A stretch of 20,000 nucleotides of DNA, from the IMG/VR virus record IMGVR_UViG_3300025141_014349; one strand, 5' to 3'. The notes under the pieces are model-generated. The model was not told the origin of the DNA, made no database searches, and saw only the letters and a program-made list of their open reading frames with translations. Shown in pieces: positions 3,050 through 17,495 of this stretch; within the stretch, counting starts at the first letter, position 1, and each line of letters begins with the position of its first letter. The DNA is from an uncultured virus (IMG/VR IMGVR_UViG_3300025141_014349) (Duplodnaviria; Heunggongvirae; Uroviricota; Caudoviricetes). Made by a program: the position numbers and the translations under genes.

Positions 3050-4276
3050 ATGAAAATTAGTTTCGGCGCCAATGATTTGCTAGCAAGCGCCTCGTTTGAT
3101 CAGCGCGTTCAATACCAAGACAATTACCCAGAGGGCATCAGAAACTATCGTGCCATAGACTATTGGTATGACGATGGGAATTATGGGAGACTCAATAGTG
3201 TCGGGGATCCAGTGTACCCTTCGGAGGCAAACCTCAAGCAACTAAGAGGAACTGGCGATAATGTATGTTATGTGTTGAATTTTGTGGCAGATGCATTTGA
3301 GGCGCTCCGTAATGCAGTGCGCTTTCAGCAGTCGAAAAATAATTTAGTCAACATTGGAGGAACTCCTTTCGAATTGGTGGCGTCAGCAGGATGGGTTAGT
3401 CTGAATGTCGCCTACACTCGCCACGCGCAGCATTTTTATGGGACTCACCTTTATCCTCATCTCTTGACGCCCACTGTTTCTGAAGATATTGTAGACTTTG
3501 ATGATTTCATTGAGGCGTTTACACAATTGGCGGACCAGGCGCTCTTGGTGACTCCGTTCACTAAGACTGAATATCTTATGAGTAAAAATTCCTCTCCGCT
3601 GATGAGCGGACTGGTGATCGAACTAAGTGACCTTTACGATCACGGAAGCGATCTAGAGAAGATAACTGATTTTATAAACAGTAATAACTTTGAAGTATAT
3701 AGAGAGATAGCGAACCTGCATGGGTTTGCAGTTGACAGGAACGCGCCCTGGAGACTCGTTGCGCTTCCAGGGTATCCTGCTATGCAGCGCTTCATGTCAA
3801 AGTATGGGGTAACTCTAAAGACGCTTTTTAAGAAGTATTATTATACTTCCTACTTTCTGGATATTCCAAGCATGAAATCCCATCTCTTTCAATATTATCA
3901 AGCGTTCACTACAGACTCTCCTGAGGTCCGCGTTCCCATTGTACGCGAGATGGGAGACAAAAAAATTAGCTTGACAAAGGTGATCCCGCGTGCTACACTG
4001 TCTCTTCAGGATTTTTTAGAAAAGTATAATAATTTATTTTGGATTCGTTTGTATGTTTATGTAAGGGCAAAGGAAACCAATCGCGATTGGAATCAATATA
4101 AGTTTGATCATATCGTGAAAGAAGCGAGTGATTTTTTTACTTATTCGACTGAGGCGGCAGCGTTTAAGTTCATCAATAAAGAGGTAAGAAGGTTCCCCTC
4201 GGACCAATTGGTCCCTTACCGTCGAGGATCCTTTAGGTTTAAAAGAAAGCGCAAATATCGTGAAGAGAATAGATAA
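3050..4276 (+). CDS. Hypothetical phage protein (408 aa, aromatic-rich, basic C-terminus)
   Basis: Long ORF starting right after the upstream stop (TAA|ATG) and overlapping the polymerase start; no recognised motif. Confidence 0.8.
   Translation: MKISFGANDLLASASFDQRVQYQDNYPEGIRNYRAIDYWYDDGNYGRLNSVGDPVYPSEANLKQLRGTGDNVCYVLNFVADAFEALRNAVRFQQSKNNLVNIGGTPFELVASAGWVSLNVAYTRHAQHFYGTHLYPHLLTPTVSEDIVDFDDFIEAFTQLADQALLVTPFTKTEYLMSKNSSPLMSGLVIELSDLYDHGSDLEKITDFINSNNFEVYREIANLHGFAVDRNAPWRLVALPGYPAMQRFMSKYGVTLKTLFKKYYYTSYFLDIPSMKSHLFQYYQAFTTDSPEVRVPIVREMGDKKISLTKVIPRATLSLQDFLEKYNNLFWIRLYVYVRAKETNRDWNQYKFDHIVKEASDFFTYSTEAAAFKFINKEVRRFPSDQLVPYRRGSFRFKRKRKYREENR
3971..3999 (+). promoter_or_regulatory. Sigma70-type promoter inside the 408-aa ORF, upstream of the polymerase gene
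   Basis: TTGACA (3971-3976), 17-nt spacer, TACACT (3994-3999), extended -10 TG at 3991-3992, A-tract upstream. Confidence 0.6.
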
Positions 4277-5459
4277 TGTTTTTACTGTTTTAGATTCAAA
4301 GAAAGAATGTTTAGGATATTATTATAGTGGCGATATAGCACCCGAGAAAACTCAAGATCAGTTTATAACATGGGATTACAAATCAGATTTTCATGAAGAT
4401 TATCTGGAGTATACTCAGTTATATGCCTTGGGCAAAACTCTTGGTGAAATATGTCCCCCCCACCTACAAGAAGAATGGGCCCGCCTCCAGAAGAAGAGAG
4501 CATCGTTTCAGAATGCACTTTGCACCGCGAAGGTGGACATGAATAGCGTCTGTGCCTATGACGTAATACCTCAGTGGTTTTTGAAGGAATACTCTCAAGT
4601 CAAGTGCGACATCATAGAATGGGTATATGAAAAAATAGAGCGCCCTTCCAATTATGATAAGATGCTTGGGCTAGAGAGACTCTTTGATGAGATAAAGTCC
4701 AATCCTCTGAGGGTTGACTTGGGGGCAATGAAAGGGGACGTGTCTTCCATGGTGGTGAGGCAAAACTTGAAGAAGTTGAGGGGGGCATCCAATTCAATAT
4801 CTTATAACCAGCACGGATCTATCACGGGTCGCCTTACTCTAGAGAGAGATAGTTTTCCTATTTTGAACCTTCCTAAGAATTTTAGAAAAATACTAAAACC
4901 AACTAATGATTTCTTTGTGGAGTTCGATTATAACGCAGCAGAACTAAGAACGCTGTTGGCGACCATGAACATCGAGCAACCGATGGAGGATATACACGAC
5001 TGGAATAGGCGCCACATCTTCAGAGATGGGTGCACCCGAGAAGAGGCGAAGAAGAGAGTCTTTGCATGGTTATACAATCCAGACTCCAAAGATGATTTGC
5101 TGAATCAATCCTATGACCGAGATGCAGTGCTCTCTAAGTATTGGGACGGCACGAAGGTGACAACTCCGTTTGGAAGGGAAATGGAAGCGGGCGAACATTA
5201 CGCTCTAAACTATATCATTCAGAGCACAACCAGCGATCTGGTTTTAGAGCAAGTGCTCAAAGTGCGCGAATTTCTTAAGGAATCCGATTCGAAAATAGTT
5301 TTTTTGATTCACGATAGTTTTGTGCTTGACATTCCCGCCGAAACGCGCTATAATATACCGGAGATCAAAAACATATTTGCGTCTAATCGCTTCGGAAAGT
5401 ATAGGGTTGGAGTAAAGGTGGGAAAAGATTTTGGTAGCATGAAGGAGATTGCTGTATGA
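4260..5459 (+). CDS. polA: Compact family A DNA polymerase (no recognisable exonuclease domains)
   Basis: GSITGRLT, motif A FDYNAAELR, DIH, motif B REEAKKRVFAWLY, TTPFGR, ALNYIIQSTTSD, motif C LIHDS; GTG start, exact start uncertain. Confidence 0.9.
   Translation: MKRIDNVFTVLDSKKECLGYYYSGDIAPEKTQDQFITWDYKSDFHEDYLEYTQLYALGKTLGEICPPHLQEEWARLQKKRASFQNALCTAKVDMNSVCAYDVIPQWFLKEYSQVKCDIIEWVYEKIERPSNYDKMLGLERLFDEIKSNPLRVDLGAMKGDVSSMVVRQNLKKLRGASNSISYNQHGSITGRLTLERDSFPILNLPKNFRKILKPTNDFFVEFDYNAAELRTLLATMNIEQPMEDIHDWNRRHIFRDGCTREEAKKRVFAWLYNPDSKDDLLNQSYDRDAVLSKYWDGTKVTTPFGREMEAGEHYALNYIIQSTTSDLVLEQVLKVREFLKESDSKIVFLIHDSFVLDIPAETRYNIPEIKNIFASNRFGKYRVGVKVGKDFGSMKEIAV
5326..5354 (+). promoter_or_regulatory. 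Perfect-consensus sigma70 promoter inside polA, upstream of the tubulin-like gene
   Basis: TTGACA (5326-5331), 17 nt, TATAAT (5349-5354); about 100 nt upstream of the ATG at 5456. Confidence 0.75.
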
Positions 5460-6301
5460 TGAATGTGGTGGGCATAGGAAAGGCGGGGTGCCGCATCGCT
5501 GGATTGCTGGATGAGTACCCTCAGTACGATGTCTATAAGATAGATGTTGGTCTGAAGAAAGCAGACCGCGTTTTCCCCATAACAAAACGGTCCTCTCCAA
5601 GCGAATATGAGGAAAAATTTTCGAAGAGGATTTTTTCAGATCTAAAAAAAATAAAAGGCAATGTTCTTCTTATAGTGGGAGGTGGGGGATCCATCTCATC
5701 CTGTACTCTTAGAGTGATGGAGGCATTGCGCCACAATACGATGGAATTGGTGTACGTCAAACCTGACCCTTCTTTTCTTACTGAATCAGGCATTATTTTA
5801 GATAAAATTGTATTCAATGTATTGCAAGAATATGCGCGCTCAGGACTTTTGGAAAAACTCTACATTGTTTCTAATGGTGAGATCGAAAAGGTTATAGGGC
5901 AAATTCCTGTTTCTCGATATTATCAAAAGATAAATGAGATAATTTCTTCCACATTGCACATGATTAACGTATATAAGAACTCAACGCCCGCACTTTCCAA
6001 CATTAAAGAGATTAGTGGCATTTCTCGGATTTCTACCATAGGCATTGGGACTTTCGAGAAGATGCGAGATCAGATGTTTTATCCTATTGATTATGTGGGC
6101 GAAAAAGTTTATTATTTTGCTATCAACAAAAAGCAACTGGATAAGGATGAAGAATTATTACCTAAGATTAAAATAAGAATAAAGCAGGAGGACTCAACGA
6201 TTAGAACTAGTTTTGGGGTGTATCCCACCCCATATGATGAAAACTATATTTATATTTTAGCAAACACCAAAATCATACAAGGAGTAAATTATGATGAGTA
6301 A
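5456..6301 (+). CDS. Divergent tubulin/FtsZ-superfamily protein (PhuZ/TubZ-like)
   Basis: N-terminal NVVGIGKAGCRIA (FtsZ VIGVGGAGxN-like loop), LLIVGGGGSISS at the position of the GGGTG[S/T]G signature, VYVKP, LYIVSN (cf. LIVIxN), N-containing helix YYQKINEIIS; AAGGAG RBS; ATGA overlap with the polA stop. Confidence 0.7.
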   Translation: MMNVVGIGKAGCRIAGLLDEYPQYDVYKIDVGLKKADRVFPITKRSSPSEYEEKFSKRIFSDLKKIKGNVLLIVGGGGSISSCTLRVMEALRHNTMELVYVKPDPSFLTESGIILDKIVFNVLQEYARSGLLEKLYIVSNGEIEKVIGQIPVSRYYQKINEIISSTLHMINVYKNSTPALSNIKEISGISRISTIGIGTFEKMRDQMFYPIDYVGEKVYYFAINKKQLDKDEELLPKIKIRIKQEDSTIRTSFGVYPTPYDENYIYILANTKIIQGVNYDE

Positions 6302-6575
6302 GATTTATACAGGAATGTTTCGTAAGAAAAATAATGATTTGAGGCATATGACTTTTGTTAAGTTAGATGATGTACCGCCACCCTTTTTGGAATCCAAGAT
6401 GAAAGGATCTGACGCAGATCGTAAAATGTCTAACGGCATGGAACTGGTATGGGATCTTGATCAGGATAACTTCCGCGTGTTCAATTGGGAATCCGTGGTT
6501 GGGCAGATTCGAGAGATTGAGATGAGCGAAGATGAAAAAAATAAGATTTTTGCGAATAAAGTCTTGACAGATTGA
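6291..6575 (+). CDS. Small SH3-fold WYL_2/DUF2693-like protein
   Basis: Pattern FRKKNNDLRHM...VWDLDQDNFRVFNW resembles the FxKxxGxxRxM...VWDxxxxxWRSF pattern of phage DUF2693/WYL_2 proteins; AAGGAG RBS. Confidence 0.6.
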   Translation: MMSKIYTGMFRKKNNDLRHMTFVKLDDVPPPFLESKMKGSDADRKMSNGMELVWDLDQDNFRVFNWESVVGQIREIEMSEDEKNKIFANKVLTD

Positions 6576-6592
6576 GTTGGGCGTGGTATGAT
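6564..6592 (+). promoter_or_regulatory. Sigma70-type promoter for ssb-tRNA-recA
   Basis: TTGACA (6564-6569), 17 nt, TATGAT (6587-6592), extended -10 TG; AAGGAG RBS follows before ATG 6622. Confidence 0.8.
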
Positions 6593-6621: not shown

Positions 6622-7356
6622 ATGGCGATTGATATGAAAAAAATGCAAAGTAAATTAAATAATCTTAAGGCACGGGGTGGTGGGAATTCTTTTTGGAAAC
6701 CTACCGATGGCGTGCAAACGATTCGCATTCTTCCGACTGAAGATGCTGATCCTTTTAAGAGCTTTTATTTCCATTACAACATTGGAAAAGAAAATGGATT
6801 TCTTTGTCCAAATAATAATTTTGGCGATGATTGCCCTGTTTGTAGTTTCGTGAAGAATCTTTACCGTGAAGGTGACGATGAATCTCGGAATATGGCACGG
6901 CAATTGAACGCTAAGAGTCGTTTCTTCTCGCCCGTCTTAGTACGTGGTGAGGAGAGCGAGGGTACCCGCGTTTGGGGATACAGCAAGACTGTGTATGAAA
7001 CTTTACTTAGTTTAGTGCTTAATCCTGAATACGGGGATATCACTGATCTGGAAACCGGCGTGGATCTAGATCTTCATTATGGTAAACCGCCGGGCGGTCA
7101 ATTCCCCGTCACTAAGTTGACCCCCCGCCGCCAGTCTAGTTCACTTTGTAAGGAACTAACTGACGACCGATGCAAGGAACTTTTAGACAGTATTCCTGAC
7201 TTTAGTACCTTGTTCGAAAGGAAGACCACAGCGGATGTACAGAAAATGTTAGATGAACATCTGGCAGGTGATAACCCCGAAGGTTTCTCACGGGAAACGC
7301 AGAAGTATACTTCAGATTCGGATAAGGTGGATCAAGCATTTAGCGATCTACTTTAG
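6622..7356 (+). CDS. ssb: Single-stranded DNA-binding protein, T4 gp32-like
   Basis: FWKP...TIRILP, putative Zn ligands HY...CP...CPVC, YGDITD, acidic/hydrophobic C-terminal tail DSDKVDQAFSDLL; adjacent to RecA. Confidence 0.85.
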   Translation: MAIDMKKMQSKLNNLKARGGGNSFWKPTDGVQTIRILPTEDADPFKSFYFHYNIGKENGFLCPNNNFGDDCPVCSFVKNLYREGDDESRNMARQLNAKSRFFSPVLVRGEESEGTRVWGYSKTVYETLLSLVLNPEYGDITDLETGVDLDLHYGKPPGGQFPVTKLTPRRQSSSLCKELTDDRCKELLDSIPDFSTLFERKTTADVQKMLDEHLAGDNPEGFSRETQKYTSDSDKVDQAFSDLL

Positions 7357-7501: not shown

Positions 7502-8620
7502 ATGAAAAGACCTAAACCTAAGGCAGGTAAATTGAGCATTAGCGAAATGCGCAATTTGATCAACAAAAAGGCTGGCATGCCCGTAGCGCATGACCTTACT
7601 GCCGAGAACCCCACCGAAGTAAAAGATTGGATCCCTACGGGATCGACGTGGCTAAATGGCATTGTGTGCCGAGGAAGATCAGCGGGCATTCCTGTGGGGA
7701 AGTTGACCGAAATCGCGGGAATGGAGTCTAGTGGAAAGAGTTATATGGCGGCACAAATTGCATCTAACGCCCAGAAAATGGGAATTGATGTAATATATTT
7801 CGATGCGGAGTCCGCCATTGATCCATCTTTTCTTGAGCAAAGCGGTGTAGATTTAGCAAATATGTTATACTTGCAGGCGATCTCAGTAGAGTTTGTACTA
7901 GAAACTATAGAAGATCTCCTCAAAACGAACGACAATAAGATGTTGTTTGTTTGGGACTCTTTGGCACTTACCCCAGCGGTTAGCGATGTGGAAGGCACTT
8001 TTAATCCGAATGAGTCTGTGGCGGTTAAAGCGCGCGTACTGGCGAAAGGCATGTCTAAGTTGGTGGTCTCTTTGGCGAATGCTCAATCTACGCTCCTCGT
8101 GCTCAATCAGTTGAAAACGAACCTTCAGGTTCAGAATCCAAAGTATGCGACTGACAGCGAAAAGTATGTTTGCCCAGGCGGCAAGTCAATGGCATATGCA
8201 TATAGTTTGCGTATTTGGTTAACGGGAAGACGAGGCGCCAGCAGTTTTATTTTAGACGACAAAGGGTATCGAATTGGAAACGAAGTCAAGGCACGACTAG
8301 AGAAGTCCCGGTTTGGGACTGCGGGTCGTATATGTAATTTTAAGATCATGTGGGGAAGAGATATAGGTATCCGTGATGACGAGAGTCTCTTTGAAGCAAT
8401 CAAGAGTTCTGAGCATCTCAAAAACAGCGGACCTTGGTGGACCCTCGTTTATGCCGACGGGACGGAAGAGAAATTTCAGGTAAAAAAATGGATAGATTTC
8501 ATGCAGCGCCAAGAGTTTCGCGCGAGAGTGATGCAACTATTAGACGAAGAGGTTATTCTCAAGTTTGATAAGCGCCTGGTGGAAGCAGATCGATTTTATG
8601 AAGCGGAGGAAGAAGAGTGA
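7502..8620 (+). CDS. recA: RecA/UvsX-family recombinase
   Basis: IPTGS...GIPVGKLTEIAG, Walker A GMESSGKS, YFDAE, Walker B LFVWDS, LNQLK, PGGK; start set at ATG 7502 behind AAGGGG (ORF track starts at 7487). Confidence 0.95.
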   Translation: MKRPKPKAGKLSISEMRNLINKKAGMPVAHDLTAENPTEVKDWIPTGSTWLNGIVCRGRSAGIPVGKLTEIAGMESSGKSYMAAQIASNAQKMGIDVIYFDAESAIDPSFLEQSGVDLANMLYLQAISVEFVLETIEDLLKTNDNKMLFVWDSLALTPAVSDVEGTFNPNESVAVKARVLAKGMSKLVVSLANAQSTLLVLNQLKTNLQVQNPKYATDSEKYVCPGGKSMAYAYSLRIWLTGRRGASSFILDDKGYRIGNEVKARLEKSRFGTAGRICNFKIMWGRDIGIRDDESLFEAIKSSEHLKNSGPWWTLVYADGTEEKFQVKKWIDFMQRQEFRARVMQLLDEEVILKFDKRLVEADRFYEAEEEE

Positions 8621-9108
8621 GTGGTACTACTTTTTTTCTATGTATGGTAGTGGTTCAAATGGACTATACTTACGACCAAGCAAAGACGGCGTGTGACTTG
8701 ATGCCCATTATCGAGCAGGAGTCCTATAATAACAATATAGACCCAGGATTAGTGGTATCTATTATCCACGTAGAGAGCGCGTGGCGCCCAAACGCTGTTA
8801 GTGCTAGGGGTGCGTGCGGATTGATGCAACTCGTCCCCACATCCCATCGTACGCCCTCTGGGAAGGTATATAGTTGTAGGCAGTTGAAAGATCCGGCGCT
8901 GAATATTCGCTTGGGAGTAGAGCACCTCAAGAAGTGGATAGATTTAGCGAACGGGGAAATGCCGCTAGCGCTGTGTGTCTATCATAGAGGACCTAAGTGT
9001 TTTGAAGATCCATCTTATCACTATATTGAAAAAGTAGTATCTGTGTATGGTCGGTTCATATCAGAGGTGGTCGCTCTAGGAGGATCTTATGAAGAAGGTG
9101 GCGGATGA
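8617..9108 (+). CDS. Lytic transglycosylase (SLT domain)
   Basis: IIHVES (catalytic Glu), NAVSARGACGLMQL, LKDPALNIRLGVEHL, ALCVYHRG (cf. ALAAYNAG); GTGA overlap with the recA stop. Confidence 0.9.
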   Translation: MSGTTFFLCMVVVQMDYTYDQAKTACDLMPIIEQESYNNNIDPGLVVSIIHVESAWRPNAVSARGACGLMQLVPTSHRTPSGKVYSCRQLKDPALNIRLGVEHLKKWIDLANGEMPLALCVYHRGPKCFEDPSYHYIEKVVSVYGRFISEVVALGGSYEEGGG

Positions 9109-13915: not shown

Positions 13916-14248
13916 ATGACACAGGAAGCGCTTGTCCCTCTCAACCGACATGTATTGCTAGAAGATGTGGAACCAACAGAGAAGGAAACTTCGCCGGTTC
14001 TGATACCGGAAGACTATAAGATGGTCAAAGAGTTCGGGATTTATCGAGTAATAGAATCTGCGCTCAATTGCGAAAATTATTTTGCCGAAGGGCAGTTGGT
14101 GGTGGTGGAAGAGAACATGTTGCGCCAGATAGATTTGGGGACTAATAAGAAATATTATATTATTCCTGAGAACTTAATTGTGCTGCGTTCTGGACCGGTC
14201 ACTCTCAAGCGCGAAACGCCGCAAGGCGCCCCATTCAATGAAGACTGA
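13916..14248 (+). CDS. groES: GroES-like co-chaperonin
   Basis: LVPLNRHVLLE, mobile-loop-like TEKETSPVLIPE, EGQLVVV, YYIIPENLIV follow the Cpn10 strand order. Confidence 0.7.
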   Translation: MTQEALVPLNRHVLLEDVEPTEKETSPVLIPEDYKMVKEFGIYRVIESALNCENYFAEGQLVVVEENMLRQIDLGTNKKYYIIPENLIVLRSGPVTLKRETPQGAPFNED

Positions 14249-16858: not shown

Positions 16859-16949
16859 TATATTAGGGTGGACTGTGACATATAGCAAAAAAATAAAACG
16901 ATATGCCGCAAAAAAATTACAGACGATTCTGAGTAAGGAGAAACTTCTA

Positions 16950-17495
16950 ATGAAAAAACTATTACTAATAGCAGCAATGCTATTCTGCTTTCCTACGTAT
17001 GCGCAGGAAAAGAGCGATTACTTTGGACTGGGTGCGGCCACCGGTGCAACTAGCGGTGTGGGACTGACTCACAAAGGTTATTTAAACGATTTCGGATACC
17101 AATTAACTTTGGGTGCATTTGGTTCGCCCAATGATATGTTGATGGGATCAGTTGGCGGTAACTTGAGTTATACATTCGCTAAGATGAAATATGCGCGCCT
17201 CTATGGATTGGTGGGGGTAGGTACCTTCTTTAATCGCACCGCACATCATGAATACGAAATGTGCGATTGGAATCAGATTACTCAAACAGATGAGAACTGT
17301 GTTACGGTACCGGAAAGGTTCACCCATGGCGCCATAGCTAATGTTGGCGCGGGTTTAGGGATTGAAGTCTTATTTTGGGACACAGTGGGCGTATCCTTTG
17401 ATGTTCCTCTCTCAACTAGTCTAGGAATAGGCGATGGGGTGGAACTACTTGGTTTCTTCCCGATCCCCAATCTTTCTTTGGTTTATTACTTTTAG
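16950..17495 (+). CDS. Outer-membrane beta-barrel protein with Sec signal peptide
   Basis: AAGGAG RBS; signal peptide MKKLLLIAAMLFCFPTYA; alternating Gly/hydrophobic strands; terminal LVYYF beta-signal. Confidence 0.75.
   Translation: MKKLLLIAAMLFCFPTYAQEKSDYFGLGAATGATSGVGLTHKGYLNDFGYQLTLGAFGSPNDMLMGSVGGNLSYTFAKMKYARLYGLVGVGTFFNRTAHHEYEMCDWNQITQTDENCVTVPERFTHGAIANVGAGLGIEVLFWDTVGVSFDVPLSTSLGIGDGVELLGFFPIPNLSLVYYF

Follow-up and report, generated by a model that had tools for sequence, protein, structure and literature searches.

The window analysed here is a 20-kb stretch of DNA, which forms the final part of a 134.5-kb virus record that is rated 74% complete and carries T4-like head, portal, terminase, sheath, tube, baseplate and late sigma genes. 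The best-matching sequencing runs are marine metagenomes, and 3 of the 24 listed contain at least half of the words. At positions 5456–6301 the window encodes a 281-aa protein, hereafter minimal tubulin, which is located between a short DNA polymerase and a single-strand DNA-binding protein (SSB). The arrangement of this region is as follows.

3971–3999, + strand: sigma-70-like site, 10/12 with TG, upstream of the polymerase and within the preceding gene
4260–5459, + strand: short family-A DNA polymerase of the divPolA1 type, 399 aa, motifs A, B and C invariant
5326–5354, + strand: sigma-70 consensus without mismatch (TTGACA-17-TATAAT), within the 3′ end of the polymerase gene and 130 nt upstream of the tubulin ATG
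5456–6301, + strand: gene of the minimal, tail-less protein with predicted tubulin/FtsZ fold, 281-aa ORF
6291–6575, + strand: optional 94-aa gene with a weak WYL_2/Sm-like match (E 0.005, below cut-off)
6564–6592, + strand: sigma-70-like site, 11/12 with TG, before the SSB gene
6622–7356, + strand: gp32-like SSB, first gene of an SSB-UvsX-exonuclease-DnaB-RNR block

The ATG of the tubulin gene and the stop codon of the upstream polymerase share 4 nt, and an AAGGAG ribosome-binding site lies 8 nt 5′ of the start. The gene is real and under purifying selection, with dN/dS values of 0.054–0.136 in seven of eight pairs, the remaining pair being saturated. Its relatives number 498 at 90% clustering, the family comprises 883 clusters at 50% identity, and the stretches of IMG/VR that carry it amount to about 2,000 by the tool's estimate. 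Nearly all members are 265–300 aa long, and the sole source name seen for them is "hypothetical protein". No longer or fused form was found among 7,997 candidates of 526–2,000 aa, which is weak evidence, and an internal TGA flagged in one relative (G022) is a natural stop. The elements of the 281-aa protein are listed below; element names and FtsZ numbering derive from profile alignments and secondary-structure reading, not from model coordinates.

Residues 4–15: T1
Residues 75–82: eroded T4
Residues 124–130: family patch QEYARSG, at the end of H5
Residue N140: T6
Residues Y155, N160 and H168: H7
Residues 176–190: eroded T7/H8
Residues R191 and Q275: further single residues

To describe the fold, we used an AlphaFold2 model of minimal tubulin built from 113 sequences (pLDDT 94.6, pTM 0.92). 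The model spans an N-terminal Rossmann-like GTP domain, the core helix H7 and a C-terminal α/β domain. Specifically, H6 is present at residues 140–147, while residues 175–224 contain no helix, with H8 and H9 between H7 and H10 replaced by loops. From the H7 Asn to the S7 Gly the protein has 36 residues, where E. coli FtsZ has 40 and the intact tubulin of these phages, described below, has 41. The top Foldseek match of the model is FtsZ (E 2.5e-14, TM 0.72). A second structural aligner that does not lean on Foldseek matched it to CetZ with a Z score of 24.7 (rmsd 3.0 Å over 256 residues, range 1–278), followed by TubZ (22.6), FtsZ (21.9) and tubulins (20–21), while PhuZ scored 16.5–16.6 and dehydrogenases came next at 10.8. 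In a repeat comparison CetZ, FtsZ and TubZ differed by about 2 Z units. Additionally, the ESM atlas yielded clusters of this family that contain only viruses, together with a viral cluster resembling TubZ (TM 0.87). The best match is therefore not a Rossmann enzyme, as unrelated folds score 10.8 or less, and PhuZ lies 6–8 Z units under CetZ, FtsZ and TubZ.

Sequence comparison presents a different picture. Searches of Pfam, PHROG, NCBIfam and PDB sequences with the protein or its profile gave no match, and neither TIGR00065 nor PF00091 matches the 281-aa protein; weak PF00091 matches occur in 8 of 113 relatives (best E 0.0055). No match to minimal tubulin was found in 50,697 GenBank phage records, and identity to the wider superfamily is 10–16%. 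The proposal of the earlier note that the gene encodes a tubulin/FtsZ-like protein is thus borne out by the predicted structure and not by the sequence libraries. As judged from the model, the 281-aa protein belongs to the tubulin/FtsZ superfamily but to no named subfamily, and it is farthest from PhuZ; minimal tubulin is not PhuZ.

The structures of CetZ, FtsZ and TubZ (PDB 3zid, 4b45, 2r6r, 4ei7, 3m8k) have the same two-domain fold as the model (Z 22–25, rmsd 3.0–3.7 Å, 256–275 residues), and at 12–16% identity the T1 glycines, the T5 Pro, the T6 Asn and the H7 aromatic and Asn residues are kept. Unlike these proteins, minimal tubulin has no GGGTG[ST]G signature, no T3 GxG and no GxxNxDxxD T7 loop; its model is devoid of H8, H9, linker and tail, it has the QEYARSG patch of its own, and no partition or divisome genes were seen next to its gene. 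The FtsZ linker and conserved C-terminal peptide are lacking. TubZ comes with a C-terminal tail, a neighbouring gene for a TubR-type DNA-binding protein and centromere repeats, whereas minimal tubulin is tail-less and its small neighbours are MazG-like or WYL_2-like, both by weak matches. PhuZ (phiKZ, 201phi2-1, Goslar; PDB 3zbq, 3rb8, 9pm9), which was compared by structure and by one sequence, is likewise a phage-encoded, compact member of the superfamily. In the available text of 10.1101/311498, PhuZ has no H6, retains the T3 GxG and the catalytic aspartates D187/D190, and at its C terminus ends in a long helix with a tail; the accessible parts of PMC3678025 and 10.1101/311498 tie the tail to filament stability. 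In contrast, the minimal tubulin model contains H6, and only 6 residues follow Q275 where PhuZ has the long helix H11 and an acidic tail. PhuZ is typical of phiKZ-like phages that bear chimallin; the phage studied here appears T4-like instead, as judged by the head, portal, tail and late sigma genes of the 74%-complete record.

Next, residues were counted over 304 non-identical full-length family members. Conserved T1 Gly, T5 Pro, T6 Asn and H7 guanine-binding residues are hallmarks of the superfamily according to the available text of PMC8456036. The guanine-side residues are largely kept in the family, including G8 (303 members), G11 (282), G76 (284), P103 (244), N140 (272), Y/F155 (274) and N/D160 (283); five pocket residues are jointly present in 241 members, and N140 and N160 are both missing in some. 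The T1 glycine loop reads VVGIGKAGCRIA (residues 4–15) and the T4 position reads GGGGSISS (residues 75–82), as the earlier note had it. The GGG[TS]G[ST]G signature occurs in none of the 304, the consensus being G-[SAG]-G-x-[IV]-S-[GA]; its fourth Gly is never present, with Ile or Val instead, and its Thr/Ser is found in 39. The T3 GxG is found in 13 members. The canonical T7 motif, for which the earlier note saw no clear sign in the window's protein, is absent from nearly the whole family, as [ND]xDxx[DE] occurs in the T7 segment of 2 members, and H8 is not in the model. In a manual register, FtsZ D209-F-A-D212 lines up with a remnant, N182-I-K-E185, whose position 185 is an acid in 137 members. 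No member has a long C-terminal tail; 1–7 aa follow the invariant Q275 in most of them, in line with the tail-less 281 aa first noticed. By zone, conservation is lowest in T3 (0.30) and T7/H8 (0.34), intermediate in T5 (0.49) and highest in T1 (0.75) and QEYARSG (0.81). In the available portions of PMC8456036, PMC3678025 and bioRxiv 10.1101/311498, the T7/H8 acids are tied to hydrolysis and the T3 GxG to γ-phosphate and longitudinal contact. Together, these data support the idea that the protein stands for a separate phage clade within the tubulin/FtsZ superfamily, one whose phosphate-binding site has been rewritten. The static filaments and the dominant-negative FtsZ mimic suggested at the same time fare worse, since T3 and T7/H8, the loops of head-to-tail contact, are the least conserved zones.

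The gene order is rigid. In 80 loci seeded by the tubulin gene it runs LysM baseplate gene, two unnamed genes, short PolA, tubulin, SSB, UvsX, exonuclease and DnaB. As the immediate upstream neighbour, 49 of these loci have PolA and 16 a MazG-like gene of 103 aa; immediately downstream, 61 have SSB and 13 the 94-aa gene, together 74 of 80. Conversely, tubulin lies downstream in 79 of 80 loci seeded by the polymerase, of which 54 have sequences new to the tubulin-seeded set, and the single miss ends 6 nt past the polymerase. The gap between polymerase and tubulin is 40 nt or less in 53 of the 79 loci, while other genes stand between them in 26. The MazG-like gene (e.g. L004:7694-8008) is inserted there in several branches, often overlapping both neighbours; its assignment is weak, with 1 of 4 tested matching. 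We also considered a TubR-like identity for the inserted small gene, and it looks MazG-like instead.

The upstream polymerase fits the divPolA1 description in the available text of PMC11348598 (Yutin et al. 2024). As in the locus described there, it is a short PolA with an intact palm, in T4-like phages of 155–190 kb that have a second polymerase and the same replication genes after it. All 58 divPolA1 sequences compared from our lineage share motifs A, B and C without change, and the gene order is the same as in Immutovirus, while the similarity to the Immutovirus type protein is a weak tblastn match (26%, E 2e-4). In the N-terminal part of the polymerase (window 4260–4600), residues C17, C65, C98, D12, K14 and W38 are invariant in the 58 sequences, and this set could be a metal site in a presumably dead exonuclease domain. 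DnaE is encoded in 18 of 35 related records, most of them fragments, which weakens the candidate explanation that the short polymerase is the sole replicase and needs tubulin for processivity. No DnaE was found in the 134.5 kb of the source record, where it may lie beyond the end, and no PolB or gp45-type clamp was found in five records. A T4 gp55-like late sigma factor is present, with neither gp45-type clamp nor PolB found beside it (G000; G001, G002), and relatives use DnaE.

Cultured members of the divPolA1 group differ at the tubulin position. Immutovirus and Microcystis phage Mel-JY01 have divPolA1 and the same block without tubulin, and an unrelated 150-aa protein fills the slot; this protein directly follows PolA in 73 of 82 Immutovirus-like loci, and two complete records contain no tubulin. 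Seven larger records of a sister lineage also have divPolA1 without minimal tubulin, with variable small genes behind the polymerase. The 150-aa family (L082:1346-1801, L083:5813-6256, L092–L171) is very large and unnamed, with an HRKKESNT motif; 7,992 of 8,000 candidates scored. Its fold prediction reached a pLDDT of 39, and the atlas gave no match. We rejected the idea that it is a piece of tubulin or its strict substitute, as there is no profile similarity and 2 of 80 loci carry both, in the order PolA, tubulin, 150-aa protein, SSB. These two loci suggest that the tubulin gene entered the slot once and was then kept. The available text and three supplements of PMC11348598 contain no word on tubulin, FtsZ, TubZ or PhuZ. 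A full-text search, with most subscription journals outside its scope, found no published account of the minimal tubulin family, and the supplements of other papers could list such genes.

The promoter-like signals, which are consensus matches and not mapped promoters, point to the time of expression. Of 57 loci, 52 have a sigma-70 site 5′ of the polymerase, compared with 8 of 129 background windows. The site at 5326–5354 is one of four perfect sigma-70 sites on the + strand of the genome. Eleven of 58 polymerase genes contain the internal site with at most one mismatch, where synonymous recoding that keeps the same residues would be expected to give 1.8, and all 11 loci also have one upstream of the polymerase; on the tree (quick version) the groups with an internal site require at least four gains or losses. 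This pattern suggests that host polymerase may transcribe the module early and that some lineages may have extra output for tubulin and later genes. The polymerase–tubulin pair as the end of a late tail operon, or as a virion part, was rejected as the main reading on account of the 52 of 57 sites 5′ of the polymerase.

A second, intact tubulin was observed in relatives; like the fixed place between divPolA1 and SSB, it does not figure in the earlier note. One related record encodes a 364-aa tubulin with intact T1, T3, T4 and T7 (G002:C1:103,386-104,480; L173:1027-2121). In this family of 345–410 aa, the T4 signature is present in 75 of 80 and a DxxD T7 in 80 of 80, and the gene is found at many different genome positions. 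The proteins (L173, L175–L254) have an acidic N-terminal extension and no long tail, and belong to marine T4-like phages of 165–280 kb. They are nearest CetZ and FtsZ by sequence and have no match in the GenBank phage set; this undescribed-looking family is a candidate spindle outside phiKZ-like phages. Intact tubulin is also the best profile match of the minimal family (hhalign 87%, E 3.7e-6, residues 4–178), whereas a proteobacterial FtsZ profile of 26 sequences reaches 6%, and it is plausible that minimal tubulin descended from an intact-type gene. Both genes occur together in 8 of 35 intact-tubulin records, including 3 of the 4 near-complete ones. The intact gene is found in 1 of 20 records picked by the minimal gene, most of which are fragments; a 184-kb record with a rating of complete lacks it, and 7 larger records have it without the minimal gene. 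Where an intact tubulin is encoded in the same record, the ordinary filament role could be filled by that other gene.

Tubulin-family proteins are defined by GTP-driven filaments. Minimal tubulin quite probably forms no canonical dynamic filament. The kept G8, G11, G76, P103, N140, Y155 and N160 suggest that it still binds guanine nucleotide, while the usual hydrolysis and head-to-tail assembly appear to have been lost. The kept pocket, the lost catalytic and assembly loops, the missing tail, the strict retention and the independence from the intact paralogue together point to a pseudo-GTPase with a new job. Our preferred reading, which rests on the model and stays tentative, is that a GTP-binding, hydrolysis-dead, non-treadmilling tubulin may have been reused as an early replication helper. 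The protein would be expressed early in infection and would help the replication module beside the mini-polymerase divPolA1 and SSB; a new invariant polar patch (Q124, E125, R128, S129, H168, R191, Q275) may hold the remodelled lower face or bind a partner. That partner might be a replication protein or the fork, and the nucleotide might serve as a structural cofactor or as a sensor of the (d)GTP pool. More doubtful is the wider form of this proposal, in which a tubulin outside the cytoskeleton would be the first of its superfamily to serve a DNA replication machine, as a nucleotide-bound subunit or as a sensor, and would be a fixed core gene of a very large ocean phage group whose members can carry an ordinary second tubulin for filaments.

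The replication-helper role appears the most likely of the readings considered because the gene keeps the same position between divPolA1 and SSB, often with an overlap, and lies behind putative early promoters. Tubulin is not an obligate polymerase subunit, since divPolA1 occurs without it in Immutovirus, Mel-JY01 and the seven sister-lineage records. The separate internal promoter in 11 of 58 loci suggests that tubulin output exceeds that of the polymerase, which is easier to reconcile with a protein made in bulk than with a 1:1 subunit. A complex prediction for polymerase and minimal tubulin, run without controls, scored 0.00 and carries no weight in either direction. Gene order is rigid across the whole block, baseplate genes included, so that adjacency may be history only.

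Bulk expression would also suit the foremost rival, an unlikely one, in which the protein assembles by itself and without hydrolysis into a static filament or lattice, held by a remodelled interface, that serves as scaffold for the replication centre. The entire two-domain fold and the guanine pocket are kept, an invariant patch lies on the lower face, and in the available text of 10.1101/2023.02.24.529968 a PhuZ mutant that is dead for hydrolysis polymerises whatever the level of induction. The canonical contact loops T3 and T7/H8 are, however, the most variable zones, H8 is missing from the model, and there is no C-terminal tail, which PhuZ uses for holding its filament.

Ranking after this reading, and likewise unlikely, is a dominant-negative cap, whose nucleotide face would bind the T7/H10 face of FtsZ in the manner of MciZ, MinC and MipZ; no further subunit could then join, and division would stop early in infection. 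A kept nucleotide face and a lost lower face make up the geometry of an end cap, known inhibitors aim at the same FtsZ face (available text of PMC9897490), the host-type promoters point to early expression, and no phage tubulin partner is needed. Such a mimic should nevertheless retain T3 and T5, which are poorly conserved here (0.30 and 0.49), the profile is barely FtsZ-like (6% in hhalign), and host-takeover genes, in our judgement, do not usually occupy a constant position among replication genes.

A dynamic GTPase filament with rewired catalysis, which would position DNA like PhuZ or TubZ, is improbable. In this scheme E49 and E52 would act near the nucleotide, and E125/R128 or E185 would be supplied by the next subunit. 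The conservation of these residues (E52 acidic in 300 of 304 members, E49 in 281, R128 in 302) and the acid at the D212-like position in 137 members agree with it, but the γ-phosphate contacts (T3 GxG, T4 Thr) are gone, N140 and N160 are lost in some members, the tail is absent, no TubR-like neighbour was seen, and some genomes carry intact tubulin in addition. Least probable is that the protein nucleates the intact tubulin or co-polymerises with it, like γ-tubulin or an α/β pair: the co-occurrence in 8 of 35 records and the 87% profile match speak for it, yet the intact gene moves around the genome, is missing from the complete 184-kb record and from 19 of 20 minimal-gene records (most of them fragments), and stands without the minimal gene in seven larger records.

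Minimal tubulin represents a large family missed by standard libraries, in which the fold and guanine pocket are kept and the hydrolysis and assembly elements shed, and which its phages never lose. Whatever its role, it would show a use of the fold without dynamic polymerisation. The protein is small, easily expressed and easily tested, it can serve as a marker for a lineage of abundant marine phages of the T4-like type, and the unexplained divPolA1 gains a candidate partner.

The only match in 185,579 genomes is a phage contig in a bin labelled Legionellales (PBLX01000020.1), which contains a whole phage replication and baseplate block; this phage DNA is likely mis-binned, and the label was not taken as evidence on the host. 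Further along the window, a lytic transglycosylase is encoded within the replication block (8617–9108), followed by a GroES-like gene (13916–14248) and a gene resembling an outer-membrane β-barrel by a weak match (16875–17495), the last of which hints at a Gram-negative host. Elsewhere in the source record, very large unnamed proteins of 2,950, 2,123, 1,518 and 1,235 aa without PHROG match lie among the baseplate genes (G000:C1:36,370-66,927), and two long clusters (G000:C1:12,000-32,400 and 86,100-93,200) contain sugar-nucleotide, glycosyl-, methyl- and sulfo-transferase genes.
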